A stretch of 64,000 bases of DNA from a phage. The DNA is taken from assembly GCA_018093385.1 (NCBI GenBank), contig GCA_018093385.1_4808.1; one strand, written 5' to 3'. Made by a program: the position numbers and the translations under genes. Shown here in pieces: positions 3,896 through 37,961 of the stretch (position 1 is the first letter of the stretch; every line of letters starts with the position of its first letter). The notes beneath the pieces are model-generated. The model was given only the letters and a program-made list of their open reading frames with translations. It was not told the origin of the DNA and did no database searches.

Positions 3896-4291
3896 CTATT
3901 CGCTCTTATGGGCATCACCAAAGCCATCCGCAATCTGGCTGATCAATGATTCAATGGACACAGTTTTACCAATTGATCGAGCGGTAATAGCAAGCATATT
4001 ATCAATCAAACCATGATTGGATGCATATGGTCCAGGTTTTGAATCATCTTCAGGACAACCAAAAAGCTGGTCGCGCAAACTTTCGAGAGAACGCTCAATA
4101 TTTTCCAGCTTCTCTTCTAAATCAGATTGGCGACGTAAAACCCATGTTAAGTCTCGGTTGCCGACTTCCAACCCATCAGAATCGCAAGCTGGAACGTCAA
4201 TTTTGATGCTGCCACCAAAGGCCATTCCGCTGCCTTTAGTATATGTGTTGTGAATAGAATCATTCTTATTTGACATATCATTACCTTTCAT
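3896..4291 (-). CDS. Hypothetical protein (start may be second ATG at 4276)
   Basis: 131-aa ORF. Confidence 0.45.
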   Translation of the reverse strand: MKGNDMSNKNDSIHNTYTKGSGMAFGGSIKIDVPACDSDGLEVGNRDLTWVLRRQSDLEEKLENIERSLESLRDQLFGCPEDDSKPGPYASNHGLIDNMLAITARSIGKTVSIESLISQIADGFGDAHKSE

Positions 4292-4349
4292 GAGGGTGAT
4301 TAACTTGAATTATAATAAAGCCGCATGGCGCGGCATTCAAATCGATTTA

Positions 4350-4598
4350 TTAATTGTGACGATTTGATTCATCAATCGATACCAATTGTGCAGGGTCGCC
4401 GGATACCGTTGCGCCGACGATACCCATCTGAGAGAAAAATTCTGAATAGACTTCTTTCCAGTACTTGCGCGCTGCTTCCTGGGCTTGACCTTTGCGCTTG
4501 AAGCTTTTGCCTTGAAAGATGAAACGGTCACTTGTCGCGCGATACTCCACCACGCCTTCCAGCCATTGTAAGAATGCTACTGATTCATTTTGATTCAT
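4350..4598 (-). CDS. Hypothetical protein
   Basis: Internal ATG with GAGGT SD; longer ORF-track version overlaps upstream gene. Confidence 0.4.
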   Translation of the reverse strand: MNQNESVAFLQWLEGVVEYRATSDRFIFQGKSFKRKGQAQEAARKYWKEVYSEFFSQMGIVGATVSGDPAQLVSIDESNRHN

Positions 4599-4605
4599 GT
4601 TAACC

Positions 4606-4998
4606 TCAAAGGTCCAAGAAAAATTTAAGCCAGCTTTCCGCAATCTCGCGGCCAGTAGCCAATCGGTCTGTCTTTTCCATAGGTCTGCACACGCCACAGG
4701 GTAATCCTTTCTGTAGGCGTGTACTATTGCCAATTTTTACCCAAACTTGGCCAGCTTGGTCGACATAAGCTTGGCAACCCATGATTTCGAGTCGTTGTAG
4801 ACACTGGCGAATCGTTTTCAGCTTCTCACCGGACCGGATAGAGCGCGGTCGCGACCGCTGACCGTTTTTATTCACTGTACGCTTGGCGACCGGAATATCA
4901 TTGGTGCGCTGCGGCTTGGGTCGGTAATAAGCCTCTTCGCCAGGAGTCGCACCTGGCGTCAGTTCACGCTTAAGCGCCTTTTCAATGTCTATGATCAT
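4606..4998 (-). CDS. Hypothetical basic protein
   Basis: 130-aa ORF, Arg/Lys-rich N-half. Confidence 0.45.
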   Translation of the reverse strand: MIIDIEKALKRELTPGATPGEEAYYRPKPQRTNDIPVAKRTVNKNGQRSRPRSIRSGEKLKTIRQCLQRLEIMGCQAYVDQAGQVWVKIGNSTRLQKGLPCGVCRPMEKTDRLATGREIAESWLKFFLDL

Positions 4999-5092
4999 AA
5001 TTTATGCCGCAGCAGCATGAATTATTGCGTAAACAATTCCTAACAGGGCGACAACGCAAATCGTGCCCCAAAATGCAAAGCGCCGTGCCTCT

Positions 5093-5299
5093 TTATCCAT
5101 TGTCCACTGCTCCAATATCCGTTAAGAACTCGTGCAAAGCACCTTTCTTGTTGAGTTTTTGCATAGTCTTGATATCATCAAGTGATATACTTTGATCGCT
5201 TTGCTGTTTATCAATGCAAACAAGACTGCCTTTGGCCTTGATGGTCATGCCTTTGGCTTCGATACTTTTTACAAAATCTGACAACACTTTAATTTCCAT
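5093..5299 (-). CDS. Hypothetical protein
   Basis: 68 aa, GGAGAAGG SD. Confidence 0.45.
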   Translation of the reverse strand: MEIKVLSDFVKSIEAKGMTIKAKGSLVCIDKQQSDQSISLDDIKTMQKLNKKGALHEFLTDIGAVDNG

Positions 5300-5579
5300 T
5301 AGAGCCTTCTCCGCTGTTAATGTTGTCCAGAATCAAGGTCGGAATTTCATCTTGAGTCCTGACTTTGTAATGAGAAGGCATCTTGCTTTCTAACAATGCC
5401 TGTTCGGCTTCTCCCTTTGTCTCAAAGAGCGGGATGCACCAATCAACTGCGTTGCCATGTTCATTGCCTGTAACGGCTTTCAAAAAGACAAGGCGTTTGT
5501 CTGCAGGGTCGATGCCGCAAATTAAGTATTTTGGAAGAGCCTTTGCTTTCTGAGCCTTATCAACATCTTCAAATTTCAT
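5289..5579 (-). CDS. Hypothetical protein
   Basis: 96 aa, GAGGTG SD. Confidence 0.5.
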   Translation of the reverse strand: MKFEDVDKAQKAKALPKYLICGIDPADKRLVFLKAVTGNEHGNAVDWCIPLFETKGEAEQALLESKMPSHYKVRTQDEIPTLILDNINSGEGSNGN

Positions 5580-5660
5580 AAATCACCTCACTTGTTAACG
5601 TATAATGAGTATAACTTAATTGCGCATAAAGTAAAGGCGCTTTTCAGCGCCTTGAGTGAA

Positions 5661-7994
5661 TTATTTCGCTGATTTCAGCGCGGCTATCTCTGCCTCTAGT
5701 GATTCAACCTTTTTCATCAACTCCTGCACCACGTGCATCGTGTCAAGAAGCATTGGAGTTGTGTCTAGTTGTTTTTGTTCAACCTCTACGCCTTCGCTCG
5801 GATAGAATTTCACCGTTTTTACATACAACGGGTCAATAATCTCTGCTTGTTGAGCGATGACACCCCTTCTTACCCTTTCCTTTTCATCATTGTTGTAAAT
5901 AAATGTCACATATTCCAACGATGAAAGGTTGCTCCATGCTTTTTCAACCGTTCCTGGCTGTATGTCATGCTTCAAATTCTCATCAGAGATGGCATTCTTT
6001 TGAAGAGTATAAAAGCTATCTGATCCAAGAATTGATACAGAGAAAAACACATCATGAGAGTTAGGCTGTATGTTCATCCTTGTCTGGTACTGCGCATTAT
6101 CATCTCCAACGACGAGCCAAGTGCCCTGCGCAAAACTTCCGTTATTGTTGTGGATCAAACCGTGGTGAAGCGTTGTGGCATAACCTGTATCAACCTGTTG
6201 ACCGCCGCTAAAAAGACTGTTGAAAGCATAGTTTTGACCCATTGACTGTCTCACCGTTGCATAGGTGCCGATTCTTGTTCCAGTCTCACTCCAAGACATT
6301 AAGCTTCCATATCTCGCGGCGAATCTGTCGCTGCTAAGAGTTCCTGCATCATCAAATGCAAGGTCTTTAGTCACCCCTTTTGTTTTATTGTACACAGACA
6401 GTATTGCATAATAAAATCCATCCATGTATGCATCGCATCGCAATCCGGCATCAGCTTCAACAACAGTACCAATTTTGTATTGTGCCCTTACTTGCCCTGA
6501 AGACCCCTTAACCCCAGAGCCTGGTCGAACAGAATCCGCATTGATAACTGACCATTGCGTATTCGCGGCAACAAAGCCACCAGATGCACGAATCACCCAA
6601 ACACCGACAAAGTTGCGCGGCACGATTTCAGCCGCTGATCTTCCGTATACAGGGCTTGATCGAGAAGCGTCAAAGTTTGTTTGTATGAATCTTGAACCAG
6701 AACCTGCTGCTGCTGGAGAGTCCCCAGAAGTGATCGACTGAAAAGCGCCATTAGTCGCCACCTGACTTGGCGCAGAAGCCAACGTGACCATTGTGCGCGG
6801 CGCGGAGTAAGTTATATTTGGTGCACCTGACTCAGAAACGACTCCATTTGATGATGGATTGCCTCCATCACCTCGACCGAACAGGGCCTGAATAGAACCC
6901 GTCTGCACGCCGTTTCGGTCCGGCACACGAAATGTTGTCGTTCCGTTACCTAAAGAGTATTTACCGCGTTTCGCTGGGTCCGCTAACCAATCTGCATCTG
7001 CAATAGGTGAAAGCATTTGCGCATACGCCCAAAGTTCAGGCCAGTCAGCGCGGTTTAACAACTGCCCATCAGCAACGACTTCATACGGTTGAATATAAGC
7101 ACGGCTGTCGCGTAAGTGGAAGTCACCGACGCCATAGTTCATAACGCCGTTCATACTTGGTCCAACGGTGCCTGTGTTTACTAAGTTCTCAACCCAACGC
7201 TTGGTCGCGGCATCATGATCGTTTACTGGGTCACCAGCAAGCGGTGTTGCACCTTGTGGACGAATATTCAACCATGCTTGCGCATTGTCGGCTGACCCTG
7301 TGCCGCCCATAGAAGTCGGAACGATGTTTTGATCAGCGACTGTGCCAAATCCAAAAGCGGACTTCATACCCTGAATGGTAGTTTGGCCTGTGCCGCCGTT
7401 GGCGACTGGGATTATGCTTGACTCGGAATAAATCATGACCCAAGGAGACCACGTGCTATTTTGAGCGTTGAATCTTCTTTGGTAAGTATTGTTAATGGAA
7501 TATGATGTGTATTTTTGAATGCAACTTTCGGTCGATACTCCTGTTTGCAACACCTCTAAGACTCCTGCTTGTTCAACAGGATAGTTCAATCCAAAAGAGG
7601 CGGCGCCATCAGAGTTCTGATAATATTGCCCAAACCAGCTGCCGGTAAGAGCATTAAGATTCATGCCGGAAGGAACAGTGCCAAAATTTCGCAAGGTATT
7701 GGTCAAAGTCGCAGCAGTTGTTCGAATGGAAAGCATGTCACCAGCCGCCCATGCACGCGCTGCAGTTCCTTCCTGCGCACGCTGCACGGTTAGCACGTTT
7801 CCAACTACGGCTGTTACTGTGACGATTTCAAATTGGAGGCCTGTTGCAGCGTCGACGATTGTCGCCACTACACGCTCGTTCGCGGCCAAGGTCGGAAAGC
7901 CCGACCCTGAGCGGATTGTGATTGTGGTGTCTGAAGTCGTCGTTGGCTGGGCAAGCGCGACCTCAAAGTTGTTTTTGAATATTAGCCTTGGCAT
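5661..7994 (-). CDS. Tail fibre/tailspike protein with C-terminal intramolecular chaperone (peptidase S74-like) domain
   Basis: C-terminus LKHDIQP...GVIAQQAEIIDP...coiled-coil tail matches the self-cleaving chaperone module; Gly/Ser/Thr-rich body. Confidence 0.7.
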   Translation of the reverse strand: MPRLIFKNNFEVALAQPTTTSDTTITIRSGSGFPTLAANERVVATIVDAATGLQFEIVTVTAVVGNVLTVQRAQEGTAARAWAAGDMLSIRTTAATLTNTLRNFGTVPSGMNLNALTGSWFGQYYQNSDGAASFGLNYPVEQAGVLEVLQTGVSTESCIQKYTSYSINNTYQRRFNAQNSTWSPWVMIYSESSIIPVANGGTGQTTIQGMKSAFGFGTVADQNIVPTSMGGTGSADNAQAWLNIRPQGATPLAGDPVNDHDAATKRWVENLVNTGTVGPSMNGVMNYGVGDFHLRDSRAYIQPYEVVADGQLLNRADWPELWAYAQMLSPIADADWLADPAKRGKYSLGNGTTTFRVPDRNGVQTGSIQALFGRGDGGNPSSNGVVSESGAPNITYSAPRTMVTLASAPSQVATNGAFQSITSGDSPAAAGSGSRFIQTNFDASRSSPVYGRSAAEIVPRNFVGVWVIRASGGFVAANTQWSVINADSVRPGSGVKGSSGQVRAQYKIGTVVEADAGLRCDAYMDGFYYAILSVYNKTKGVTKDLAFDDAGTLSSDRFAARYGSLMSWSETGTRIGTYATVRQSMGQNYAFNSLFSGGQQVDTGYATTLHHGLIHNNNGSFAQGTWLVVGDDNAQYQTRMNIQPNSHDVFFSVSILGSDSFYTLQKNAISDENLKHDIQPGTVEKAWSNLSSLEYVTFIYNNDEKERVRRGVIAQQAEIIDPLYVKTVKFYPSEGVEVEQKQLDTTPMLLDTMHVVQELMKKVESLEAEIAALKSAK

Positions 7995-8032: not shown

Positions 8033-8374
8033 TTAATTTCTTTTGAGAGGAATATGACGGTGGCTGCCATTATTTGGTTTAATAATGAGCATAAAAACGA
8101 TTAGAAAGATGATGGCTGATATACTTAATTCAATCAGCGCGGCTTGAGATATAGATTGATCTTCATGATACTGCTTTTGCATTTCTGCTTTCTTCTGAGC
8201 GCAAACTTCAGGTGATATGTAATCGCCTTTTGAGTTGCCATAATAAATTTCGCCATTCTCAGAAATAAGCCTGCCGCAAATATCCGTTTCAGCCTGTGCG
8301 CTTGACATCATAATAACAGTTCCGATGATAGCGGCGATAGTCCAGATTAACAGTTGTGATAAAGTGTTGTTCAT
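8033..8374 (-). CDS. Secreted/membrane-anchored small protein
   Basis: Start MNNTLSQLLIWTIAAIIGTVIMMSSAQA with AGAGG SD; C-terminal hydrophobic segment. Confidence 0.5.
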   Translation of the reverse strand: MNNTLSQLLIWTIAAIIGTVIMMSSAQAETDICGRLISENGEIYYGNSKGDYISPEVCAQKKAEMQKQYHEDQSISQAALIELSISAIIFLIVFMLIIKPNNGSHRHIPLKRN

Positions 8375-9256: not shown

Positions 9257-9285
9257 ATTATAACGCAGACTTTCAGAAAGGCAAA
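9257..9285 (-). promoter_or_regulatory. Promoter TTTGCC-N17-TATAAT for the 9230-to-3896 minus-strand gene set
   Basis: Hexamers with 17-bp spacer in divergent intergenic region. Confidence 0.5.
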
Positions 9286-9377: not shown

Positions 9378-9407
9378 TTGATATAGCTTGTACAAGCAAA
9401 CTATAAT
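9378..9407 (+). promoter_or_regulatory. Promoter TTGATA-N18-TATAAT upstream of large terminase
   Basis: Near-consensus hexamers; implies terminase start may be ATG 9441. Confidence 0.45.
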
Positions 9408-10868
9408 ATGAATAAAATATTAACACATAATTGGAAATTCATGTACCAGTTGAATCCTGCTTTAAAAGAAGTCTGGAAGACAAAAGCGCGATACAAAGTG
9501 ATATACGGCGGTCGTGCATCTTCCAAATCGCACGATGCCGCTGGTTTTGCTATTTATTTGGCGGCAAACTTCAAATTAAAATTCCTTTGCGTTCGACAAT
9601 TCCAGAACAAGATTTCTGAATCTGTATATACTCTATTAAAAGACAAAATAGAGATTTCTGATTTTAAAGATGAGTTCAATTTATTAAAGAACTCTATCGA
9701 ACACAAAAGAACTAAATCTGAATTTCTATTTTATGGTATCGCACGTAACGTTGATGAAATCAAATCAACAGAAGGCGTTGATGTTCTTTGGCTGGAAGAA
9801 GCGCACGCGCTTACTGAAGAACAGTGGGACATTATTGAGCCGACAATACGTAAAGAAGGGTCCGAAATATGGATCATCTTTAACCCTGATGAAGAGGCCG
9901 ATTTCGTATATCAAAACTTTGTTATGCGACCGCCGAAGAATGCCATTGTTAAAAAGATAAACTGGCAAGACAATCCATTTTTGTCGCAAACGATGCTGGA
10001 CGTTATTGCAGGCATGTACGAGCGTGACCCGAAAAAGGCAGAGCACGTTTATGGCGGCGTGCCGAAGACTGGCGGCGACAAATCTGTAATCAACCGCGCA
10101 TTCGTTAAGGCCGCGCTTAATCTACACAAGCACCCCACGCTGGGCTGGAGTTTGTCAGGGTCTAACCGTATAGGCTTTGACGTAGCGGACGATGGCGACG
10201 ACCTTAACGCCACTGCATTCGTCACAGGAAACGTATTGCGCGGCATCAAGACGTGGGAAGGCCTGGAAGATGAATTGTTGAAATCGGCAAGCGGAGTTTG
10301 GAAAGATGCGCTTACATTCGGCGCTTCCATAACTTATGACGCCATCGGTGTCGGCGCTTTTGCTGGTTCAAAATTTGATGAACTAAACGAGTATGCAATA
10401 CATGAAAATCCATCATTTCCAAGAATCGAATTTAATGCGTTCAACGCGCAAGGGTCTGTTGATGATCCTGATGACGTTTTTCTTGAATTACCACACGTTG
10501 AAATACTCAATAAAGACCATTTCGCAAACATAAAAGCGCAAAAATGGACTGAAATTGCAGAGAGATTCAGAAAGACATACGAATATGCAACTGGGCAAGC
10601 CGTATATCCGACTGATGAATTGATTTCAATCGACACCGATGGTATACCGGAACTTGGGATTCCAGCTTGGACTACTGAAGAGATTGAGACGTTTCTTTTT
10701 GAGATGTCAGCGCCGCGCAAGGATACATCTGTTCTTGGTAAGTTCAAAGTTGAATCTAAAAAGGACATGGCAAAGCGCGGAGTCAAATCACCTAACAAAG
10801 CGGACGCAGCAATCATGGCATTGATGAAACCAATCGTTGCAGCATCCGGCTTCTTCTCTAACCTTTAA
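9408..10868 (+). CDS. terL: Terminase large subunit
   Basis: Walker A-like YGGRASSKS, Walker B VLWLEEAH, nuclease-type C-half; canonical position before portal. Confidence 0.85.
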   Translation: MNKILTHNWKFMYQLNPALKEVWKTKARYKVIYGGRASSKSHDAAGFAIYLAANFKLKFLCVRQFQNKISESVYTLLKDKIEISDFKDEFNLLKNSIEHKRTKSEFLFYGIARNVDEIKSTEGVDVLWLEEAHALTEEQWDIIEPTIRKEGSEIWIIFNPDEEADFVYQNFVMRPPKNAIVKKINWQDNPFLSQTMLDVIAGMYERDPKKAEHVYGGVPKTGGDKSVINRAFVKAALNLHKHPTLGWSLSGSNRIGFDVADDGDDLNATAFVTGNVLRGIKTWEGLEDELLKSASGVWKDALTFGASITYDAIGVGAFAGSKFDELNEYAIHENPSFPRIEFNAFNAQGSVDDPDDVFLELPHVEILNKDHFANIKAQKWTEIAERFRKTYEYATGQAVYPTDELISIDTDGIPELGIPAWTTEEIETFLFEMSAPRKDTSVLGKFKVESKKDMAKRGVKSPNKADAAIMALMKPIVAASGFFSNL

Positions 10869-11685: not shown

Positions 11686-14061
11686 ATGAAAATTCTTGGC
11701 ATAAAACTCTGGGAGAAGACGCAACCAGAAGCCGAACCAGCGGAGATGCCGCCAGGCGACCCATTGGCACCGTTTGAACGCCTTGAAAGGCGCGGCAGCG
11801 GTCAACGCTGGGAAAAGACTGAAAGCAATCGACCGACCTTTAAAACGGTTGATGACTTCCCTTTATATGAGCCTGATATCAACGGGGACGGCGTTGCAAT
11901 CATCAAAGGTCGCTCAGTAGATTCAGCAACCGTATCCAAAAAAGTTATGGATAATGCCTTAAAGAACATCAGTTCAGAAGGGCAGGTGAATCCATACACA
12001 GTGCCTATTCAGTTGCAAAACTGGTACTTGTCGCAGTCATTCATCGGCTATCAAGCTTGCGCCATCATCGCGCAGCACTGGCTGGTGAACAAGGCTTGTT
12101 CCATGGTAGGTCGCGATGCGGTCCGTAAAGGCTGGGAAGTCAAATCCAGTTCTGAGTCGGAATTGTCAGTACAGGCCAGCGAACGCCTAAAGCAAATTGA
12201 TAAAGAATTTAATATCAAAGAGCACTTAGTTGAAGCCGAACGATTCAAGAATATTTTTGGCATCCGCGTCATCATATTTGATGTGCGCAGTGATGACCCA
12301 GAATATTATAGTAAACCTTTTAACATCGATGGTGTGACAAAAGGGTCTTATAAGGGAATCATTCAGGTTGACCCTTATTGGATGATGCCATTCTTGACGT
12401 CTGAAAACACTGCAGACCCTGCGTCACAGCATTTCTATGATCCAGAATACTGGGTTATCAGCGGACAGCGTTATCATCGCAGCCACCTAATCATCTTGCG
12501 CAACGATGAGCCAGCTGATATTCTCAAGCCGACTTATATCTACGGCGGCATTCCTCTGACTCAGCAGATTTATGAACGTATCTATGCCGCTGAACGTACC
12601 GCTAACGAAGCGCCATTGCTGGCGATGTCTAAGCGTACAACCACGCTGCGGACCGACGTTGACAAGGCGATTGCCAATGAGCGGTCGTTTGCCGAACGTC
12701 TGATGATGTGGATTAAGTACCGCGACAACTATGCGGTAAAAGTGCTTGGTCAGAAAGAAGAGATGGACCAGTTTGACATCAACTTGTCAGACTTCGACAG
12801 CATCATCATGAACCAGTACCAGCTGGTGGCTGCAATCGCAAAAGTGCCGTCGACGAAGCTATTAGGGACGTCACCTAAAGGCTTTAACGCCACTGGTGAG
12901 TTCGAGATGGTCAGCTATCACGAAGAATTGGAAACTTGTCAGCAGCACGATTTGACGAAGATTCTGGACCGTCACTATAAAATCCTTTTGAAATCTGAAG
13001 GTGTTGAAGTCGACGTTAAAGTGGCATGGGAGCCAGTTGGTTCACTTACTGCTACTCAGCTTGCAGAGATTAACGACAAACGAGCGAATACTGGTAAGAC
13101 TCTCATTGATGCTGGCGTCATCTCCCCTGATGAAGAGCGCGACCGCATCAAGGACGACAAAAACAGCGGCTACAACCGTTTGCCAGAAGATACAGCAGAA
13201 GAAACCCCAGGGATGTCTCCAGAGAATATGGCATTGCTTGGCAAGTCTGCTGGTGAAGTTCTGCAAGGTAAAGCCGATATTGAACAGGCCAAAGCTGATG
13301 TCGTCAAGATGGGCGGCCAGTTCTATAGTGAGACTGGTATCATGCCGGAAGGTGCCGCGCGCGGTGAGTTGGCAGAAAACCCTGACAGGGCGCCAGTTGA
13401 GATCAACATGGATGATACCGATGACGAATCAAGCCATCAGGTTGATGTCCTAACGCAACTGAAAGAAGGTCTGGAGGGTATTGCTGACTATTACCTTAAA
13501 GAAGGTCAGGATGTGGATTTTGACCCTCAAAAAGACGCAAGGTCTGTGCAGCCGTCTACCCTTCCAAGCGTAAAAGGCAATGTAGTCAACTTGCGCCACA
13601 ATGTAGGGAAGATGGATGCCTCATCGCTGCCTAAGATGAAGTTGCACGGGATGATTCTTGGTATTGAGAATCCTCGCAACAGCATTCGCAGGGGCAACAG
13701 CCTTGATGGTGAATGGGCAGTTAAGATGCCGCACCATTACGGATTTATCAAAGGCACCAAGGGCGCTGATGGTGATGAAGTCGACTGCTTTGTTGGACCA
13801 AATATGAAGTCGCCTAAAGTATTCATCATTAACCAAAATGATAATTATTCTGGCGAATTTGATGAACACAAGTGTATGCTTGGATTTGATTCAGCAGAAG
13901 AAGCGAAAGAAGCTTATCAAGCATCATTTGGTAACGGTTGGAATGGATTTGACTCAATCCACGAATTGGATGTAAACTCATTCAAGGAGTGGTTGAAGGG
14001 TGATTGCTCTCAAGCATATGGAGCACTCAATAATCCTACTAATTCACCGAAGCAAGGTTGA
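11686..14061 (+). CDS. Portal protein with C-terminal inorganic-pyrophosphatase-like segment
   Basis: 791 aa between terL and Mu-F-like gene; C-terminus has HYGFIKGT...DGDEVDC...AEEAKEAYQASF. Confidence 0.65.
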   Translation: MKILGIKLWEKTQPEAEPAEMPPGDPLAPFERLERRGSGQRWEKTESNRPTFKTVDDFPLYEPDINGDGVAIIKGRSVDSATVSKKVMDNALKNISSEGQVNPYTVPIQLQNWYLSQSFIGYQACAIIAQHWLVNKACSMVGRDAVRKGWEVKSSSESELSVQASERLKQIDKEFNIKEHLVEAERFKNIFGIRVIIFDVRSDDPEYYSKPFNIDGVTKGSYKGIIQVDPYWMMPFLTSENTADPASQHFYDPEYWVISGQRYHRSHLIILRNDEPADILKPTYIYGGIPLTQQIYERIYAAERTANEAPLLAMSKRTTTLRTDVDKAIANERSFAERLMMWIKYRDNYAVKVLGQKEEMDQFDINLSDFDSIIMNQYQLVAAIAKVPSTKLLGTSPKGFNATGEFEMVSYHEELETCQQHDLTKILDRHYKILLKSEGVEVDVKVAWEPVGSLTATQLAEINDKRANTGKTLIDAGVISPDEERDRIKDDKNSGYNRLPEDTAEETPGMSPENMALLGKSAGEVLQGKADIEQAKADVVKMGGQFYSETGIMPEGAARGELAENPDRAPVEINMDDTDDESSHQVDVLTQLKEGLEGIADYYLKEGQDVDFDPQKDARSVQPSTLPSVKGNVVNLRHNVGKMDASSLPKMKLHGMILGIENPRNSIRRGNSLDGEWAVKMPHHYGFIKGTKGADGDEVDCFVGPNMKSPKVFIINQNDNYSGEFDEHKCMLGFDSAEEAKEAYQASFGNGWNGFDSIHELDVNSFKEWLKGDCSQAYGALNNPTNSPKQG

Positions 14062-22113: not shown

Positions 22114-23652
22114 GTGATCAGTCAATCTCGTTATATTAAAATTGTATCAGGGGTCGGAGCAGGCGCGGCTGTTGCAGTTCGCAAACTGTCGCTTCGCATC
22201 ATGACTTCCAATACAGTTCTGCCGCCAGGCATTGTAGCAGAATTTTCAACTGCTGATGCCGTTGGATCATATTTTGGTTTTTCTTCCGAAGAATACAAGC
22301 GCGCAGCACTGTATTTTGGATTCATCAGCAAGCAAATCAACTCGCCTGATTCAATCAGCTTTTCTCGCGTTGTATCCACGGCGATTCCTGCAATGGTTAT
22401 CGGCGACACTGAGCCTAAAACGCTTGCTACTTTCCAGGCATTCACTGGCGCTATCTTAAGCATCACTTATGACGGCACAGACTACCTGACTGACGCCATC
22501 AACCTTTCAGCGGCAACAAGTCTTGCCAACGTAGCGGAACTCTTGGAAACGGCAATCAACACCAAGTTTGCAGCAGAAGGTGGCACGTCGGTGCCTGCAC
22601 TTGCTGATGCGGAAGTGTATTGGAATGCCAACACCCAGCAGTTCACTTTGGAAGCCGCTCCGTCGACCGCTGGTGCTGGAAACCTTTCGATTAACGTCAC
22701 AGGTCAACCGACAGACCCATCTCAGGCGCTTGGTTGGACGACTACTGGCACCGTTACGGTTGCTGGACAGGGTGTAGCAAGTCCGGTAGAAGCCATCGCG
22801 GCATCTGTGGAGATTTCCAACAACTTTGGCTCATTCCTTTTCGCTGGAGCAGACCGAACGCTGGAAGAAATCACAGCCGTTGCAGCTTGGACTCACTCGC
22901 AGAACAACATGTACATGTATCTGTTCTCGACTGCATTCGCCAACATCGGCTCATACTATACCGCGTTGAAAGGTTACTCAGGCGTTGGTATGATGATCCG
23001 TGCAACTAACCTCGCGAATGATTACATCGACCAGGCACCTGCTGAAATTCTTGCGGCGACAAACTATAACACTGTAAATGCAACTCAAAACTATATGTAT
23101 TATCAGTTTGAAACGCGAAATGTAACCGTATCGACTGATTCACGCGCAGATACTGCTGATCAAAACCGTGCAAACTATATCGGTGCGACTCAGCAAGCTG
23201 GTCAAACTCTCGCGTTCTTCCAGCGTGGTGTTCTGATGGGCGGGTCTACCGCAGCAGTTGACATGAACACTTATGCCAACGAGATGTGGCTTAAATCTGC
23301 TATCACTTCTCAGCTGTTCAGCATGTTCTTGAATCTTGGTCGCGTGCCTGCAAACGAAGAAGGCAAAGCGACTGTCCAAGCCATGATTCAAGTTGCTGTT
23401 GACAATGCGAAGGTTAACGGCACCATCTCTGTCGGTAAGGCGCTGACGGAAATTCAGAAACAGTACATCACGCAAACCTCCGGTGACAACACTGCTTGGC
23501 GGCAGGTTGAGACTATCGGTTATTGGTTGACTGTCGATTTTGACACTGAAACCACTTCCGATAACCGCACCGAATACTATGCAACATACACGCTAATCTA
23601 CTCTAAAGATGATGCTGTGCGTCGCGTTGAAGGTCGTGACGTTCTTATTTAA
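22114..23652 (+). CDS. Tail sheath-like protein (putative; GTG start)
   Basis: 512 aa, AGAGGA SD, directly upstream of tube-like gene. Confidence 0.45.
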   Translation: MISQSRYIKIVSGVGAGAAVAVRKLSLRIMTSNTVLPPGIVAEFSTADAVGSYFGFSSEEYKRAALYFGFISKQINSPDSISFSRVVSTAIPAMVIGDTEPKTLATFQAFTGAILSITYDGTDYLTDAINLSAATSLANVAELLETAINTKFAAEGGTSVPALADAEVYWNANTQQFTLEAAPSTAGAGNLSINVTGQPTDPSQALGWTTTGTVTVAGQGVASPVEAIAASVEISNNFGSFLFAGADRTLEEITAVAAWTHSQNNMYMYLFSTAFANIGSYYTALKGYSGVGMMIRATNLANDYIDQAPAEILAATNYNTVNATQNYMYYQFETRNVTVSTDSRADTADQNRANYIGATQQAGQTLAFFQRGVLMGGSTAAVDMNTYANEMWLKSAITSQLFSMFLNLGRVPANEEGKATVQAMIQVAVDNAKVNGTISVGKALTEIQKQYITQTSGDNTAWRQVETIGYWLTVDFDTETTSDNRTEYYATYTLIYSKDDAVRRVEGRDVLI

Positions 23653-32771: not shown

Positions 32772-35510
32772 ATGCAAAAGTTTGACACAAACCTGTTGCA
32801 AAACCTTAAGTGGATGCAGAACAATGCACCAAACATTACGTCTTTGGTGCAAAAGAAAAGTGACTGGTATGAAAGATACCAAGATCAGTTTTGGGCTGAC
32901 TGGTACAATAACATTTTTAACATTGACACTTGTGATGCAATGGGCATTTATATTTGGTGCGACATTCTTTGCATACCAAGAGACTTTGTGGACTTAAGCA
33001 ATTATGAGCACAACTGGGCGTTTGGACCGACGCGCGACAACTTTGAAGGTGCGGACAACATCGGCGGCAACTTCTTTGGTGCTGGCGGGAAGGTTGTCAA
33101 GAATATCGAAGAAGCGCGCATACTTCTTAAGCTTCGTTATCTGACGCTTACAAGTGATGGCCGCATCGAAAGTATCAACCGCATGCTTAAGTGGATTTTC
33201 AACCGTGGAGAGGCTTGGGATTACTCTTCATCACGCTACGCATATGTGACCGACAATACTCAAGGCGCGGTGTCTTCGTCTGAATCAACCAATGGCTCAT
33301 TCCTTCTGTACGACTGGCAAGGGTCAACTGAGATTCAGCATGATTATAAGCAGATACTTTTAAGCCATGGCAACAACGCCGGACTGACCATCAGCGGAGT
33401 GTCAGGCACCGTGTCACGGATGGCGCACCCAGATTGGTACTCATGGGGAAATGGTTCCGGCACAGGGCTTGTCGGCGGCGACACCAGACAGTATGGTGGG
33501 CCTGATTACTATGGGCAGTTGTGTGGTGATTACCCAGGCGAGGCCATAGAGAATTTTGCCAACGCAGTAAGGGTCATCAAGACGGCTTCAAGCGGTGAGC
33601 CTGTGTATTCTTTGGCCAATAATCCAAGTGCCAAATCAATTTCGCTTCCTTCGCAGGCTGGCGTCAACGTTTGCTATAGCTTCTACATAAAGGTGCTTTC
33701 TGAAAACGTCGCTTCTGTTTCTGTTACAGAGAATAGTGATGCATCGAGTAATGGAAAGCTGTTTGACCCCGTCACTGGCCAGTTCAACTTGGACCCGTCA
33801 TTGAGCTATTTCATCAAAGGCAAATTCGATGGAGTAAGAAGGGAATCAAACCGTGGTGGCATAAAAGCAATTGGCGGCGATTGGTATCGAATCTGGATTG
33901 TAGAGCAGACGGCAACCGCTGCTTCTGGAGTAAGTACCAGCTTTTCAATAGAGTTGAAGGCGACTGCCGCTGGATCAACTCAAACTCGTGAATTGCCTGA
34001 AGGGTCTGATGCTCTTTTGTTTGGATACTCGATTTGCGTCTGCGACCCTGTTCAGAATCCAAATGGACCTGAGCCTTATTTTTATGGAACGCAAAACCCT
34101 CCTTCTGACGGAACAGCAATCCTGTCTGTAACGGCGGGAACACTCAATAACATCTCCTGTGCAAACGGACCGCTGACGACAAGAAACGGTGTAGTTGGCG
34201 AGTCATTCATGCAACCTGGCTCATCACTTGCATACTCTGGCTCAATCGGCGGCCACCCGTACCCAGGGAACGCCACGCTGATTGCAGAGACTGATGGAAT
34301 CAGACGCTCATGGAACGTTAGCAGGCTGGATGGAGTACCGCCGCCGCCGACCGCCGACTATTACATGGAATACGTCATCGGACCTTATTTCGCCAACAAC
34401 CTGTCTGACAACTTTAAGACGCTAGTTGGTGACAGGAATGAAGGATTCTTGCCAGCAAATGCCGGAATACGCTGGCAGCTTTACCAAGAAGTCGCAGACT
34501 TATCTGATATTGATTTGACTGTCAGCGACATAACAGACACGCGCGTAGGATTTGAAACGGAAGGTGTTGCGTGGATTAACACTGACGGTATCATCAGAGT
34601 TGGCGGCATCAACGAGTGGCCGCTGAACAACTTCAACGGTGTGATACGCCAGCTTGAATCTTTGAAAGGTGTAAACCAGGTCGTCGACGGCGCGCTTGTC
34701 AACGACTATTCAATCTCAAAAGCATCAAGAGATGACTTTGGTCGTGAAATACCACGCGCGGCAATCACTAACTATTGGCGCTACACACAGCCAAATGACG
34801 GTACATCTTTTGGCAATATCATTGAGGATGGCGCAAACACTGTCACAGCGACGCCAATCAGCGGTGTGCCCAACCAGTTCCCATCATTCAAGCTTTCCGC
34901 TACAATAGGGACTGTGCCAACGTCCGGTTATGCACGCGCTGTACTTGCTACTAAATACACTGGCACCCTGACTGGCCCTTTGTCATTTATCGCAATAGTC
35001 AAAAACAACACGGTTAACGGTCAAAAACTTTTTGTAACTGTACCGGATGGGATGGGTGGCTATATCCCTAAATTCTACAACATAGGCGCAGGTGATTTGC
35101 AACGTATCGAAATTGACCTTGCCGCTGAGATTGTTGAAGGCGCTACCTGGGATGGATCAACAGGCGGCATCAGCATCGGTTTGATATCAGGGAAAGACTT
35201 GCCGACCGAAGTTGGTACGACTCTTGAACTTGATATTTTAAGCTTGATGCTTGTGTCTGGTAGTACGATGAATGCGCTTGCAATTTCAACAAGCGAAGAT
35301 TTCGCAAAGAAAACTGCGACTTCTATATACATCAAAAACCCAGGATCACTTGCCACTGGAGTTCAATTGATTGCTTCTAATGGTGATGTTGTAGCAACAG
35401 TAAACTTTCCGAGAAGTGCTGCTGGCGGTTATGTTTCAAGCATGAACATAACTGACTTAACTGGTGATTGGGCATCGACCCTTTTATCAAAAATTAAATA
35501 CATCGTGTAG
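32772..35510 (+). CDS. Large tail/baseplate protein, putative host-specificity component
   Basis: 912 aa, Gly/Ser/Thr/Asn-rich. Confidence 0.5.
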   Translation: MQKFDTNLLQNLKWMQNNAPNITSLVQKKSDWYERYQDQFWADWYNNIFNIDTCDAMGIYIWCDILCIPRDFVDLSNYEHNWAFGPTRDNFEGADNIGGNFFGAGGKVVKNIEEARILLKLRYLTLTSDGRIESINRMLKWIFNRGEAWDYSSSRYAYVTDNTQGAVSSSESTNGSFLLYDWQGSTEIQHDYKQILLSHGNNAGLTISGVSGTVSRMAHPDWYSWGNGSGTGLVGGDTRQYGGPDYYGQLCGDYPGEAIENFANAVRVIKTASSGEPVYSLANNPSAKSISLPSQAGVNVCYSFYIKVLSENVASVSVTENSDASSNGKLFDPVTGQFNLDPSLSYFIKGKFDGVRRESNRGGIKAIGGDWYRIWIVEQTATAASGVSTSFSIELKATAAGSTQTRELPEGSDALLFGYSICVCDPVQNPNGPEPYFYGTQNPPSDGTAILSVTAGTLNNISCANGPLTTRNGVVGESFMQPGSSLAYSGSIGGHPYPGNATLIAETDGIRRSWNVSRLDGVPPPPTADYYMEYVIGPYFANNLSDNFKTLVGDRNEGFLPANAGIRWQLYQEVADLSDIDLTVSDITDTRVGFETEGVAWINTDGIIRVGGINEWPLNNFNGVIRQLESLKGVNQVVDGALVNDYSISKASRDDFGREIPRAAITNYWRYTQPNDGTSFGNIIEDGANTVTATPISGVPNQFPSFKLSATIGTVPTSGYARAVLATKYTGTLTGPLSFIAIVKNNTVNGQKLFVTVPDGMGGYIPKFYNIGAGDLQRIEIDLAAEIVEGATWDGSTGGISIGLISGKDLPTEVGTTLELDILSLMLVSGSTMNALAISTSEDFAKKTATSIYIKNPGSLATGVQLIASNGDVVATVNFPRSAAGGYVSSMNITDLTGDWASTLLSKIKYIV

Positions 35511-35520
35511 AGGAACGGCA

Positions 35521-37308
35521 ATGCCAACACTTATTAACAGACCTTTCGCGCAAAGCGGTGATGTATCCGTGGTGCCGGATGCAAGTCCAAGCGGTTATGT
35601 GAACTTCCAGCGCGGCTACACCCCTGACTATGCACTTGCGCTAGAAGCCGGAAACGTAGCCGCGAAAGCAGTTGAACGTGAGTCGATGAACTGGTTGCTG
35701 AATCTGATCACCGACAACCTTATGTTCATACAGGACCACGGCGCTCAACAGTATTTCTCGTCTGACTTGAAGCCAGATGGATACCCGAAAAATGCCATCG
35801 TTGTCAGCAACTCTGGCACCCCTTCAGCGCCTGAATGGCGCATTTTCCAGAGTGTGGTAGACGGCAACACCAGCGCAGTCCCAGCTAACGGCGAAACGGA
35901 ATCTTGGCAGGAATTGACGCTGCCTAGCGAAGCGAGAAAATATATTCCTATGCCTGCTGGCGGCGATGCGCAAAACCCGTATTTTGTTCGCGGACTGATT
36001 TCAAACTTTGTGGACTTTGATAATATCACGACTTCCACAACTATTGTCATTCAATCTGATGCCGTTGCCGCTCTCTGCTCTAACATCCCGAATGCGGTTG
36101 GTGCGACGAAGGTTGCAGGACGTCTCCAGGTTTGCGCTTGGCAGGTTGATGCGCAGACTTTCGCCCTGCAACAATACACGTCAATGAACGGATATGTTTT
36201 CACCCGCTCTTATACGTCTGGTGCTTGGAGTGCTTGGATTCAAAATGCAACTGTTCAAGACGTGCAAATCGGCACGCCGAATCTTGCATCAGGTAAAGGC
36301 GCACAAGATATAATCCTTACCGTTCCGGCAGGTTATGCATGGCCGCCGTCAGCAGGTAGTCGCCTGACAATTGTCAATGATGTAACGACTACCGGACCTG
36401 TTACCGTGACCATTGGTGCAAACAAAGTTGCAGTCCTTGGATTCGACGGCGGCGAGCTGCCAGCAGGGTCCATCGTCGGCCTTCTTCCTTTTACTATTAT
36501 TTATGACGGCACCGTTTGGCGTCTTCTTCAAGCATTCGGCGCGGCGCAAATCGGTGTCGATGCTAGTGAGCCGCAACAGTTTGTTACAAAGCGCCAACTC
36601 GATGCTTTGGCCGCGAAGTTGATCACTATGGGTGATGTGTTCGAAGTCGGTGAGACTCGATTCTTGACTAATGGCACCAACCCAAATACTAAACTGGGCG
36701 CTTACGGTCAGGTATGGACCAGATTGCCTGATAACATGGTCATCAGGACGTCTGGCACGGCAAGAAACGGTCTTGACACTGGAGGTGCAGACTCTGTTAC
36801 TCTTACTGCCGCCATGCTTCCTCTGCACAATCACAGCGTTAACATAACTACGCGACAAAGTGGTCCATGGTCCAATACCACTGGAGACGCAGGCAACCAT
36901 AACCACACAGGCGATACCAGTCAAAACGGTGCTCACGTGCACGGAATGGATTCGGCAGGCAACCACCACCATGACAGTAGCTGGGGTGAGGCGAATACGA
37001 ATGATGCGCGGTATGGCGTGTATGATGGGACGCACAACAACTTCGGAAGTCGAAAGGGCGGCGACTGGGACAACTATAAATACAACACCTCAACTAACGG
37101 CAACCACGTTCACAATATTCAATCTTCTGGGTCACACACTCATGGGTTGAATATAAATTACGCTGGCAATCACAGCCATGGATATACCCTCCCCGCTCAC
37201 ACTCACGATGTGGTCGGTAACACTGGCGATGCAGGGCAGTCCGTCCCAACGGCTGTTTCAACTCTGCCGCGATATGTCGTCTTGAACGGCTGGTACAGAA
37301 GCGCATAA
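35521..37308 (+). CDS. Tail fibre protein with C-terminal His-x-His repeat region
   Basis: HNHSV, NHNHTGD, HVHG, NHHHD, HVHN, HTHG, NHSHG, HTHD repeats; start after GAGGAA SD. Confidence 0.65.
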   Translation: MPTLINRPFAQSGDVSVVPDASPSGYVNFQRGYTPDYALALEAGNVAAKAVERESMNWLLNLITDNLMFIQDHGAQQYFSSDLKPDGYPKNAIVVSNSGTPSAPEWRIFQSVVDGNTSAVPANGETESWQELTLPSEARKYIPMPAGGDAQNPYFVRGLISNFVDFDNITTSTTIVIQSDAVAALCSNIPNAVGATKVAGRLQVCAWQVDAQTFALQQYTSMNGYVFTRSYTSGAWSAWIQNATVQDVQIGTPNLASGKGAQDIILTVPAGYAWPPSAGSRLTIVNDVTTTGPVTVTIGANKVAVLGFDGGELPAGSIVGLLPFTIIYDGTVWRLLQAFGAAQIGVDASEPQQFVTKRQLDALAAKLITMGDVFEVGETRFLTNGTNPNTKLGAYGQVWTRLPDNMVIRTSGTARNGLDTGGADSVTLTAAMLPLHNHSVNITTRQSGPWSNTTGDAGNHNHTGDTSQNGAHVHGMDSAGNHHHDSSWGEANTNDARYGVYDGTHNNFGSRKGGDWDNYKYNTSTNGNHVHNIQSSGSHTHGLNINYAGNHSHGYTLPAHTHDVVGNTGDAGQSVPTAVSTLPRYVVLNGWYRSA

Positions 37309-37316
37309 GGTGATTT

Positions 37317-37961
37317 ATGATTAATGCAAACGTAATATCTAAAGGGACCGGATGCAGCATGGATGTTGCTGAAAAATGGGTCGACCCCTTCAAGCAGGCT
37401 TGTGAGCACTACGGAATCAAAAGCAAGAATGCCATCGCGGCGCTGCTTGCAAACGTAGGAGTGGAAACAGGCAGTCTGAAGACCTTTGTGGAAAACCTGA
37501 ATTATTCCGCTCAAGGTCTTGCTAATACGTGGCCTAGCCGTTACAGCGCCAGCGGTCGTTTCGGTGGCGCACCAAACTCCTTGGCATTGTCGATTGCCCG
37601 TAAACCAATGGAAATCGCCAATAATACATATGCAAACCGAATGGGAAATGGTTCGGTAGCATCTGGCGACGGTTGGAAGTACCGTGGCCGTGGTGCCATT
37701 CAGCTGACTGGAAAGGACAACTATGCAGAGTATTCAAAGCAATCAGGGTATGACGCATTGAATAACCCTGACATTTTGACTGAGCCGAAATACATTGCTG
37801 ACAGCGCGGCATGGTTCTTCAAGAACAGCGGTTGCATTCCACTTGCCGATGCGGGCGCATTTGATTCGACCGTGAAGCGGATTAACGGGGCCGCGCCAAA
37901 TACGGCTAACCATGGGGATTTGCGACGGAAGCGTTACAAGGGAGCACTAGCAGTTATGTAA
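37317..37961 (+). CDS. Endolysin, glycoside hydrolase family 19-like
   Basis: GWKYRGRGAIQLTGKDNY resembles the GH19 core; AAGGTGA SD. Confidence 0.65.
   Translation: MINANVISKGTGCSMDVAEKWVDPFKQACEHYGIKSKNAIAALLANVGVETGSLKTFVENLNYSAQGLANTWPSRYSASGRFGGAPNSLALSIARKPMEIANNTYANRMGNGSVASGDGWKYRGRGAIQLTGKDNYAEYSKQSGYDALNNPDILTEPKYIADSAAWFFKNSGCIPLADAGAFDSTVKRINGAAPNTANHGDLRRKRYKGALAVM

Follow-up and report, generated by a model that had tools for sequence, protein, structure and literature searches.

Genes and Signals at the Fibre Locus

The stretch of DNA analyzed here (64,000 nt, hereafter the window) is a Wifcevirus genome, from a genus of phages that infect E. coli. On its minus strand, the ORF list contains a complete coding sequence of 777 codons (5661..7994) for a lateral, "T-shaped," tail fibre with a computed mass of 83.5 kDa. 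The gene starts with ATG, ends with a stop codon at 5661-5663, is served by a ribosome-binding site GAGGA at 8006-8002 and has an unremarkable GC content. PHROG 6921 ("tail fiber protein") covers the whole product (E = 2e-200), and one NCBI protein is 100% identical to it. Directly 3' of the stop codon, a consensus scan and the sequence itself point to a terminator-like hairpin (5634..5653, minus strand), and a terminator is annotated at the equivalent place in phage WFC.

The fibre gene belongs to a leftward cluster of small, unannotated ORFs that adjoins terL. Its upstream neighbor, 38 nt away, is a 113-aa ORF (8033..8374, minus strand) whose sequence displays a signal peptide and, at the C-terminus, a transmembrane helix; the counterpart in phage 4M-7 is annotated "transmembrane domain and signal peptide." This ORF is 92-100% identical at the nucleotide level among relatives, matches no family in PHROGs or Pfam, and is probably co-transcribed with the fibre gene. 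A candidate sigma-70-like promoter for the leftward cluster, including the fibre gene, lies at 9257..9284 on the minus strand (TTGCCT, 16-nt spacer, TATAAT; 10 of 12 consensus matches). It is a consensus match only, from a scan in which 23 matches were found for 16.6 +/- 4.4 expected from shuffled sequence, barely above expectation. On the opposite strand, ~1.4 kb from the fibre gene and divergent from it, terL (9408..10868, plus strand; PHROG 3717 and PHROG 2) is transcribed away from the fibre cluster; it is 64% identical to terL of the Pbunavirus PB1.

A first-pass annotation, made from the sequence alone, had placed the fibre gene between a "TerS-like" gene and terL. Beyond the 3' end of the fibre gene, the small ORFs (3896-4291, 4350-4733, 4606-4998, 5093-5299, and 5289-5579) gave no match to a terminase small subunit in PHROGs or in Pfam at E <= 1, nor to any other annotated family of these two collections. 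Thus, the "TerS-like" label is unsupported. No tRNA genes were found in the window.

As that annotation had noted, the fibre gene stands apart from the tail module and on the other strand; the distance is ~27 kb. The module ends, again as described there, with a second, conserved tail fibre (35521..37308, plus strand; PHROG 5717 and 4900), followed by an endolysin gene (37317-37961). At its N-terminus, the second fibre resembles 9b45_2, a Pbunavirus fibre, and PB1 gp46, and eight HxH motifs are found between aa 436 and 562. It is present at full length with 87-99% nucleotide identity in 29 of 29 relatives, its final 20% being unmatched in one of them. The preceding gene encodes a 912-aa baseplate wedge/triplex protein (32772..35510, plus strand) with ~340-400 residues that are absent from its 500-aa Pbunavirus homologues; this protein may be the docking site for the extra fibre.

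Domain Organization of the Fibre

Seven segments can be delineated along the chain. The N-terminal anchor domain (aa 1-100; 7695..7994, minus strand, as are all segments) is 92-99% identical in all relatives and is homologous to aa 1-97 of PDB 8jov_1. It would attach the fibre to the baseplate. It is followed by a pyocin-knob-type domain with a linker (aa 101-215; 7350..7694). The knob region (aa 102-221) matches the R1/R2 pyocin fibres 6ct8, 6cl6, and 6cl5 both in sequence (E ~1e-8) and in fold, in line with the name given to the relatives' fibres at NCBI, "pyocin knob domain-containing S74 family peptidase." This segment is moderately variable, with 59-96% identity among relatives, the closest being TH35.

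The next three segments form the first receptor-binding domain (RBD1). Its conserved core, putatively Gp12/"Collar"-like (aa 216-394; 6813..7349), is 80-98% identical within the genus, holds most of the invariant columns of an alignment of 31 homologues, and is ~80% identical to residues 522-876 of LtfA from phage DT57C. A Pfam Collar match at aa 345-362 stays below the cut-off (E = 0.067); the same holds for the matches in 21 of the 31 homologues, the best of which reaches 0.0025. The RBD1 region is 95-96% identical to that of the Bas99 fibre, on which the published Gp12-like assignment (Collar, SSF88874) is based; our own model is unconfident there. The core is interrupted by a hypervariable insert of 48 aa (aa 395-442; 6669..6812), recognized by identity comparison among relatives: it is 94-100% identical to those of Bas98/99/100/101, FEC19, and CWP003, whereas its identity to the inserts of all other fibres is 13-44%. 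Conserved closing strands follow (aa 443-480; 6555..6668), with invariant columns from A443 to T479.

The distal tip, RBD2 (aa 481-669; 5988..6554), is called "T5-like" in the literature, where it is also stated to be undetectable from sequence (PMC11990801). Its identity is 96-97% with Bas98/100/101 and drops to 62-63% with TH35 and kaset and to 16-21% with all remaining fibres; outside the genus, the nearest match is the Tequintavirus fp01 (74%). The chain ends with an intramolecular chaperone of the Peptidase_S74 type (aa 670-777, 12.3 kDa; 5664..5987), identified by Pfam, fold and profile comparisons.

An AlphaFold2 model of the full-length monomer, computed from the 31-sequence alignment, is poor overall (mean pLDDT 50.9); only the knob (pLDDT 72-85), part of RBD2, and the chaperone (aa 670-777, pLDDT 63-86) are confidently modeled. 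Residues 490-655 of RBD2 are beta-rich (pLDDT 50-77), and a fold search with the monomer model returned no match to T5 pb1. The T shape and the Gp12-like and T5-like folds proposed for RBD1 and RBD2 are those of published multimer predictions, carried over by orthology.

The C-Terminal Chaperone

Residues 670-722 match the Pfam family Peptidase_S74 (PF13884) at E = 6.1e-10; the score of 39.7 bits exceeds the cut-off (22), and the match recurs in all 31 homologues. The domain search that the first-pass annotation had proposed thus bears out its identification of a 777-aa fibre with a C-terminal chaperone of the self-cleaving type. The motif SDENLK (670-675), with which the domain begins, carries the predicted catalytic pair, a serine (Ser670, codon 5985-5987) and, five residues on, a lysine (Lys675, codon 5970-5972), that are invariant in the 31 homologues and in 18 Wifcevirus fibres. 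With Foldseek, the top matches of the chaperone are 7dc3 (the MyRF ICA domain, E = 2e-4) and 3gw6 (an endosialidase chaperone, E = 1.6e-3), and a profile search likewise retrieves 7dc3, together with 6f45 and 3gud. Cleavage is predicted to occur before Ser670. In vB_Eco4M-7, a phage carrying a C-terminal HiBiT tag on gp27, the orthologue of the fibre, was viable and gave the strongest signal (PMC11074155). A tag that is tolerated and highly luminescent at this end indirectly supports autoproteolytic release.

Conservation of the Locus and Origin of the Gene

From the position of the gene, the first-pass annotation had suggested a separately acquired host-range cassette, and it had itself named the same gene at the same place in all relatives as the first half of what would speak against this. 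In all 17 Wifcevirus relatives examined, an orthologue is found at the same position, in the same orientation and between the same flanking genes. Hence, the placement is not a mark of separate acquisition by the window phage.

The comparison with Pbunavirus PB1 extends this picture. Genes for terL, the portal, the baseplate, a fibre and the endolysin are syntenic, and the order of terL and of the tail-module genes is common to both. Over the PB1 genome compared (all except 40-52 kb), including the syntenic region, there is no homologue of the 5661-7994 fibre; the gene was therefore added at some point in the lineage. In a tblastn search with the N-terminus, no Pbunavirus appears among the matches listed, and Pseudomonas is absent from the ten commonest genera. 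The same locus in all relatives and the absence from Pbunavirus together show that the fibre gene was gained once, by the ancestor of the genus, and not by the window phage. At the borders of the gene, a search for flanking direct or inverted repeats gave only chance-level matches of 14-17 nt, and no integrase, homing endonuclease or mobile-element signature was found flanking it. What stands of the earlier proposal is that the gene is a variable host-range determinant. Its distal modules are horizontally exchanged, and it is an addition to the lineage.

Mosaicism Within the Fibre Gene

Between flanks of 92-100% identity, nucleotide identity collapses inside the fibre gene, where conservation is confined to the anchor (aa 1-100) and the RBD1 core. 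Comparison of the alleles indicates that the knob, the 48-aa RBD1 insert and the unit made of RBD2 and chaperone reassort independently of one another. The exchanged units are segments lying within the gene, between conserved homology arms, and not the whole gene as a cassette. Modules are shared with phages of other morphotypes: aa 216-561 are ~80% identical to LtfA of the siphophage DT57C, and the distal 270 residues have 74% identity with the Tequintavirus fp01 and 58% with phiEco32-like podophages.

The window allele is itself recombinant: TH35 is nearest in the anchor and knob, Bas98/Bas100 in RBD1, RBD2, and the chaperone. At the protein level, the fibre is 93-94% identical to those of Bas98/100/101 and 69% identical to that of Bas99. 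The knob is 96% identical to TH35 vs. 76-80% to Bas98/100/101. At the nucleotide level, the gene is 85-88% identical to the Bas98/100/101 genes, for a genome backbone at 96-97%.

Receptor-Binding Modules and O-Serotype

The dependence of Bas98-101 on the O16 O-antigen was shown experimentally (PMC11990801), as was that of vB_Eco4M-7 on the O157 antigen (PMC11074155). Among 18 Wifcevirus fibres, those of the four phages that were isolated on O157 hosts (FEC19, vB_Eco4M-7, Ro157lw, and ECML-117) all have one RBD2 family in common, whose four members are 63-82% identical to one another and at most 23% identical to the others. The same four phages carry four different RBD1 inserts. Conversely, the four O16-dependent BASEL phages all carry one RBD1 insert (94-100% identical) and two unrelated RBD2 types. 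It is conceivable, if rather doubtful, that RBD1 and RBD2 are independent specificity slots that can be read from sequence. If the RBD2 family reads O157 and the RBD1 insert reads O16, FEC19 would be bispecific. If the two-slot reading is true, the window phage would read O16 and, via its Bas98-type RBD2, a second glycan. On present grounds, the receptor of the window phage is predicted to be an O16-type O-antigen.

Humolli et al. could not tell which RBD matters (PMC11990801), and the association of RBD types with O-serotypes provides a cheap hypothesis on the question left open there. As a discovery, the fibre gene carries little weight; its practical value lies in annotation and in host-range prediction. 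The segment map, with its anchor, knob, RBD1 insert, and RBD2-plus-chaperone units joined at conserved junctions, among them those at aa ~394/443 and ~480, also provides breakpoints for host-range engineering in a group of phages reported to replicate very fast.

Nature and Function of the Fibre

Taken together, the data make it very probable that the product of 5661-7994 is the lateral fibre with which a Wifcevirus myophage binds its receptor, a variable protein whose gene was acquired once by the genus ancestor and has diversified by module swaps. Three chains would fold into the fibre, nucleated by the C-terminal chaperone (aa 670-777), which would then remove itself by means of the Ser670/Lys675 dyad. 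By homology, the mature fibre would consist of aa 1-669, ~71 kDa per chain. The anchor (aa 1-100) presumably plugs the fibre into the baseplate, and the distal part would display the pyocin-type knob, the Gp12/Collar-like RBD1 with its hypervariable insert and the terminal RBD2. These distal modules may bind surface glycans, chiefly O-antigen. Once this first contact is made, the second fibre (35521-37308), which has a needle tip rich in HxH motifs, probably comes into play. Host range would have evolved since then by homologous recombination in which the knob, the RBD1 insert, and the RBD2-chaperone unit are swapped independently, from module donors that may include T5-like siphophages and phiEco32-like podophages.

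A recent and separate acquisition of a host-range cassette by the window phage, the odd position of the gene then marking the insertion site, could account for a gene set apart from the tail module and on the other strand, for a fibre body far more divergent than its flanks and for parts whose nearest relatives are in phages of other families. It is, however, largely refuted by synteny, position, orientation and flanking genes being the same in 17 of 17 relatives. Moreover, throughout the genus the first 100 aa keep 92-99% identity, flanking repeats, integrase and homing endonuclease were not detected, and GC content is unremarkable. Such an acquisition is therefore very improbable. It may also be asked whether the product is an enzymatic tailspike or depolymerase, for instance an endosialidase, that degrades capsule or O-antigen rather than only binding it. 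The S74 chaperone domain was first defined in endosialidases, the SP13 orthologue is annotated "endo-N-acetylneuraminidase," and the receptors of the relatives are O-antigens. Nevertheless, the chaperone domain alone matches endosialidase proteins. No depolymerase domain was detected in Pfam (E <= 1), NCBIfam, PDB sequence and profile, or Foldseek searches of the fibre. NCBIfam gave no match of any kind, and the body showed no sialidase, pectate-lyase/beta-helix or other hydrolase match in Pfam (E <= 1), PDB sequence and profile, or fold searches. The depolymerase fold that the first-pass annotation had considered for the body was thus not recovered. In addition, the body shares homology with fibres that have no enzymatic role, DT57C LtfA and those of pyocins; these are classed as lacking enzymatic properties (PMC11990801). 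An enzymatic function is accordingly highly unlikely.

Finally, the genomic context could suggest a product acting outside the virion, in or on the infected cell, for instance by blocking receptors for superinfection exclusion or as a released decoy. The gene is part of a leftward cluster of small unannotated, probably early genes with a sigma-70-like promoter candidate, and it directly follows a conserved secreted or membrane ORF. However, promoter matches are little above the shuffled expectation (23 vs. 16.6 +/- 4.4), and the genus-conserved N-terminus is homologous to a fibre anchor solved in situ on a virion (8jov, 18 chains). Furthermore, variation in the distal modules tracks the O-serotype of the host, as it would in an adsorption organelle, and the literature treats the product as a receptor-binding fibre (PMC11990801). 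A non-virion role thus has only a minute probability, and the lateral receptor-binding fibre remains the preferred reading.

Comparison With Known Systems

The sole solved homologue of the anchor is a podophage protein. By tblastn of the aligned fragment, PDB 8jov_1, from an entry with 18 chains, was identified as the tail fibre of the Ralstonia podophage GP4. This fibre (8JOV chain 1) resembles that of the window at both ends, with a homologous anchor at the N-terminus (aa 1-97) and a segment like the chaperone at the C-terminus, but it has 439 aa, belongs to a podovirus tail and has an unrelated middle part. The knob is that of R-type pyocin fibres (6CL5, 6CL6, and 6CT8). These, however, carry a "foot" at their end and depend on a separate chaperone, whereas the knob of the window fibre is proximal to two further binding domains. 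As for the chaperone, those of endosialidases and T5 pb1 (PF13884; 3GW6) and the MyRF ICA domain (7DC3) are like it in their Ser-x4-Lys dyad, C-terminal position, size (~108 aa) and fold. In the endosialidase system, a sialidase is chaperoned, here it is a fibre tip, and autocleavage is here a prediction.

The whole distal two-thirds of the fibre is homologous to DT57C LtfA (PDB 8HQZ chain d), with a profile alignment of aa 220-776 to LtfA 526-1074, a stretch for which 8HQZ shows no resolved structure. A chaperone with the Ser/Lys motif is common to LtfA, the fp01 fibre, and the window fibre. The lateral fibres of DT57C are essential on O-antigen-producing strains. The N-terminal parts differ: LtfA has a coiled coil and a lasso that the LtfC ring holds at the tail tip of a siphovirus, whereas the window fibre has a GP4-type anchor for a myovirus baseplate. 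LtfA also bears a second protein, LtfB, as a branch, in contrast with the window fibre.

Within the genus, the "T-shaped" fibre was described as an N-terminal anchor, a Gp12-like RBD1, a T5-like RBD2 and a chaperone (Humolli et al., 2025, PLoS Biol; PMC11990801). Fibre mosaicism and the pair of one variable and one conserved fibre were already described there for Wifcevirus (PMC11990801). Thus, the fibre gene, its chaperone, the dual-RBD architecture, the mosaicism and the second conserved fibre are already known, having been published for the genus in 2025. The closest system is "Gp114" of ManiWeber/Bas99 (locus_tag Bas99_0109), as well as its equivalents in Bas98/100/101: an orthologue that shares the locus, the length of 777 aa and the order of domains. 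Compared with the fibres of Bas98/100/101, that of the window differs in its allele combination, with a TH35-type knob, and not in kind.

The fibre gene and its surroundings

The window covers the left 64 kb of an E. coli myophage of Wifcevirus type. Over positions 1-25000, identity to SP13, vB_Eco4M-7, WFC, WFH, Bas98, Bas101 and others is 91-97%, and the start of the window coincides with that of the linear WFH, WFC and Mansfield records. The fibre gene occupies 5661..7994 on the minus strand, as proposed in the first-pass annotation, and encodes 777 aa from an ATG start codon. The start codon is preceded, at a distance of 8-12 nt, by a GAGGA ribosome-binding site. A GC-rich hairpin of 8 bp, trailed by a T-rich stretch, starts 8 nt 3' of the stop codon, and PHROG 6921 ('tail fiber protein') aligns with the whole protein (E=2e-200). 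On the plus strand, terL is found at 9408-10868. The tail module extends from about 21 to 37 kb, with the sheath (22114-23652) followed by a 'lytic tail protein' with a transglycosylase (27130-29310), then by hub and wedge proteins. A second fibre (35521-37308, plus strand, 595 aa) does close this module, as had been claimed, with the endolysin next to it.

Among the small ORFs at 3896-5579, which have no match to any annotated family, a terminase small subunit match is absent; the 'TerS-like' neighbour previously assigned there is therefore unsupported. One of these ORFs, just 3' of the fibre gene (5093-5299, minus strand, 68 aa), belongs to phrog_5649 (function unknown). The segment around it (5000-5300) can be aligned only in WFH, FEC19, Bas99 and Ro157lw among 13 relatives, and variability across 4250-5500 generally exceeds that of the remaining left arm. 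On the other side, 38 nt 5' of the fibre gene, a 113-aa ORF (8033-8374, minus strand) combines an N-terminal signal peptide (…SSAQA/ETD) with a C-terminal transmembrane helix. It shows 92-100% nucleotide identity in all relatives but carries no annotation in WFH, and PHROG and Pfam gave no family match; that it acts in fibre biology or superinfection exclusion is speculation. A perfect TATAAT (8029-8024) separates it from the fibre start. The start of terL differs by record, giving 486 aa in the window, 4M-7, Ro157lw and ECML-117, and 475 aa in WFH, WFC, SP13, FEC19 and Mansfield. The longer start directly adjoins a strong sigma-70-like match (TTGATA, 18-nt spacer, TATAAT, 11/12) that ends at 9407; this speaks for the shorter ORF, or else for a leaderless transcript.

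Domain organization of the fibre

The N-terminal anchor (aa 1-100; 92-99% identity across the genus) is homologous to residues 1-97 of PDB 8jov chain 1, identified as the tail fibre of Ralstonia podophage GP4, whose 18 chains we read as six trimers. It is followed by a pyocin-type knob (aa 101-215), matched in sequence and fold by R1/R2 pyocin fibres, which is the part of the monomer model with the highest confidence (mean pLDDT of the model, 50.9). The first predicted receptor-binding domain, RBD1 (aa 216-480), contains most of the invariant columns and gives a weak, sub-threshold signal for Pfam 'Collar' (T4 gp12 type); it is split by a hypervariable insert (aa 395-442). The second, RBD2 (aa 481-669), is beta-rich and highly variable.

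The claimed C-terminal chaperone region was recovered by domain search (Pfam Peptidase_S74 at aa 670-722, E=6.1e-10, 39.7 bits for a cut-off of 22 bits). This domain (aa 670-777) begins with SDENLK, and a fold search pairs it with the MyRF ICA domain and with 3GW6, an endosialidase chaperone. Neither Ser670 nor Lys675 varies across 31 diverse homologues or across the 18 Wifcevirus orthologues. The endosialidase and T5 pb1 chaperones provide the basis for expecting cleavage just before Ser670, and this predicted cut should yield a mature chain of 71 kDa and a fragment of 12 kDa (computed masses). A depolymerase fold in the fibre body, a check suggested in the first-pass annotation, was found by none of the Pfam, PDB sequence, profile or fold searches. 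The SP13 orthologue (L005 3501-5810) is labelled 'endo-N-acetylneuraminidase' in the public record; this label stems from the chaperone domain, the sole part in common with endosialidases.

Wifcevirus phages are known to carry two fibres, a conserved one in the tail locus with a T4 gp37-like HxH tip and a 'T-shaped' one built from a baseplate anchor at the N-terminus, then a Gp12-like RBD1 followed by a T5-like RBD2, and an intramolecular chaperone at the C-terminus (Humolli et al. 2025, PMC11990801). The T shape and the Gp12- and T5-like folds rest on published AlphaFold-Multimer models (PMC11990801). Since this study describes precisely the present situation, the finding on the fibre gene is already known. 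The ManiWeber (Bas99) 'Gp114' of that study (PMC11990801) corresponds to GenBank locus_tag Bas99_0109 (L009 3501-5834), Bas99_0114 being a 71-aa ORF. In vB_Eco4M-7, the orthologue gp27 tolerates a C-terminal tag, which gave the brightest signal (PMC11074155), as would be expected if the tagged chaperone is released.

A locus fixed in Wifcevirus

The position of the fibre gene, far from the tail module, had been taken to suggest a separately acquired host-range cassette. The locus was compared in 17 relatives (WFH, WFC, Bas98-101, TH35, TH32, SP13, 4M-7, FEC19, Ro157lw, ECML-117, Mansfield, kaset, CWP003 and ECO71P1). An orthologue of 763-790 aa, with the N-terminus MPRLIF..., is found on the same strand in 17/17; the flanking small genes are identical in kind in every annotated record, and terL lies about 1.4 kb away wherever the compared stretch extends that far. 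Presence of one gene at one locus in all relatives had been given as part of what would refute the cassette idea; as regards position, this is what was observed, and it argues against separate acquisition by the window phage. The cassette idea is partly supported: the gene probably determines host range and its modules are exchanged horizontally, but the locus itself is fixed genus-wide.

Pbunavirus is the sister group of Wifcevirus (PMC11990801). Pseudomonas phage PB1, a Pbunavirus compared outside its 40-52 kb region, matches the window colinearly in terL (64% identical), portal, wedge, the N-terminus of the conserved fibre and endolysin; a homologue of the present fibre is absent, and only small genes stand left of terL. 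Using tblastn with the N-terminal 215 aa of the fibre, Pbunavirus is absent among the matches listed and Pseudomonas is not among the ten commonest genera. Presence in all 17 relatives and absence from PB1 thus indicate that the gene was added at the root of Wifcevirus, not by the window phage. No repeats or mobile-element genes were found flanking it.

The tail-module fibre is 87-99% identical in nucleotides over its full length in 29/29 relatives, except for the last fifth in one. Eight HxH motifs lie in its tip, and at the N-terminus it matches a Pbunavirus fibre of solved structure. The adjacent baseplate wedge or 'triplex' protein (DUF2612; 32772-35510, plus strand) has 912 aa, whereas the solved Pbunavirus homologues (E217 gp45, 8env; 9b45 gp46) have 500-504 aa. 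Only aa 1-573 align with PB1 gp45, leaving about 340-400 extra residues; this protein is a candidate for the platform on which the added fibre, lacking in Pbunavirus, would dock. The portal or 'minor head protein' (11686-14061, plus strand, 791 aa) has an extra module of about 125 aa joined to its C-terminus (aa 650-775), shared with virion proteins of very large size, DarB-like antirestriction proteins and some PHROGs annotated as endolysins.

Exchange within the fibre gene

Sequence comparisons show that the moving units are segments within the fibre gene rather than the gene as a whole. Both flanks and the ~240 nt at the 5' end of the gene have 92-100% nucleotide identity to relatives; further inside, identity drops to 83-91% in the best-matching relatives and, for most, is too low to be detected. 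The closest phage-database match reaches only 88% (nucleotides). Among the best 120 of 886 protein matches, identity is 56-100% and most come from contigs near 68 kb; one NCBI protein, labelled Escherichia coli and encoded on a 68,615-bp contig, reaches 100%. The window is therefore likely to derive from the complete genome of a virulent phage within a bacterial assembly, as a contaminant or in a carrier state, rather than from a phage entry. Segment-wise protein identities show independent reassortment: SP13 and kaset share 95% in the RBD1 insert and 21% in RBD2, TH35 and kaset 96% in RBD2 and 19% in the insert, and TH32 and ECO71P1 98% in RBD2 and 26% in the insert. The chaperone mostly goes together with RBD2. 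The allele in the window is a recombinant too, its knob being nearest to TH35 (96%, versus 76-80% to Bas98/100/101) and its RBD1, RBD2 and chaperone to Bas98/100/101 (96-99%).

Host recognition and comparison with other phages

Bas98-101, from the BASEL collection, depend totally on O16-type O-antigen (PMC11990801), and vB_Eco4M-7 needs the O157 antigen (PMC11074155); Humolli et al. could not tell which RBD matters (PMC11990801). Here, 4/4 phages of O157 hosts have one RBD2 family in common and four different RBD1 inserts, 4/4 O16-dependent BASEL phages have one insert in common and two unrelated RBD2 types, and the 'O16' insert and the 'O157' RBD2 are found together in FEC19. This pattern suggests that RBD1 and RBD2 may be separate specificity slots, within the substantial limits set by a small sample, shared ancestry and labels taken solely from isolation hosts. 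The idea is worth a plating test, and is not a discovery.

Alongside the domain composition, catalytic dyad, synteny, mosaicism and cross-family homology observed here, and the O-antigen dependence shown by others in close relatives (PMC11990801, PMC11074155), the following mechanism can be proposed. The chaperone would assist trimerisation of the fibre and then cleave itself, and the anchor would attach the fibre to the baseplate. Binding of a glycan by RBD1 and/or RBD2 would be the first, host-range-defining step, the conserved tail-module fibre acting downstream. Modules may be swapped by homologous recombination, with the conserved anchor-coding 5' end, the RBD1 core, the strands of aa 443-480 and the 3' flank as putative arms.

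The homology extends to other phage families. The lateral tail fibre LtfA of DT57C, a T5-like siphophage, is about 80% identical to fibre aa 216-561, and its residues 526-1074 are covered by the fibre-family profile. The Tequintavirus fp01 shows 81% nucleotide identity over 960 nt and 74% amino acid identity over the distal 270 aa of the fibre, and phiEco32-like podophages reach up to 58% amino acid identity.
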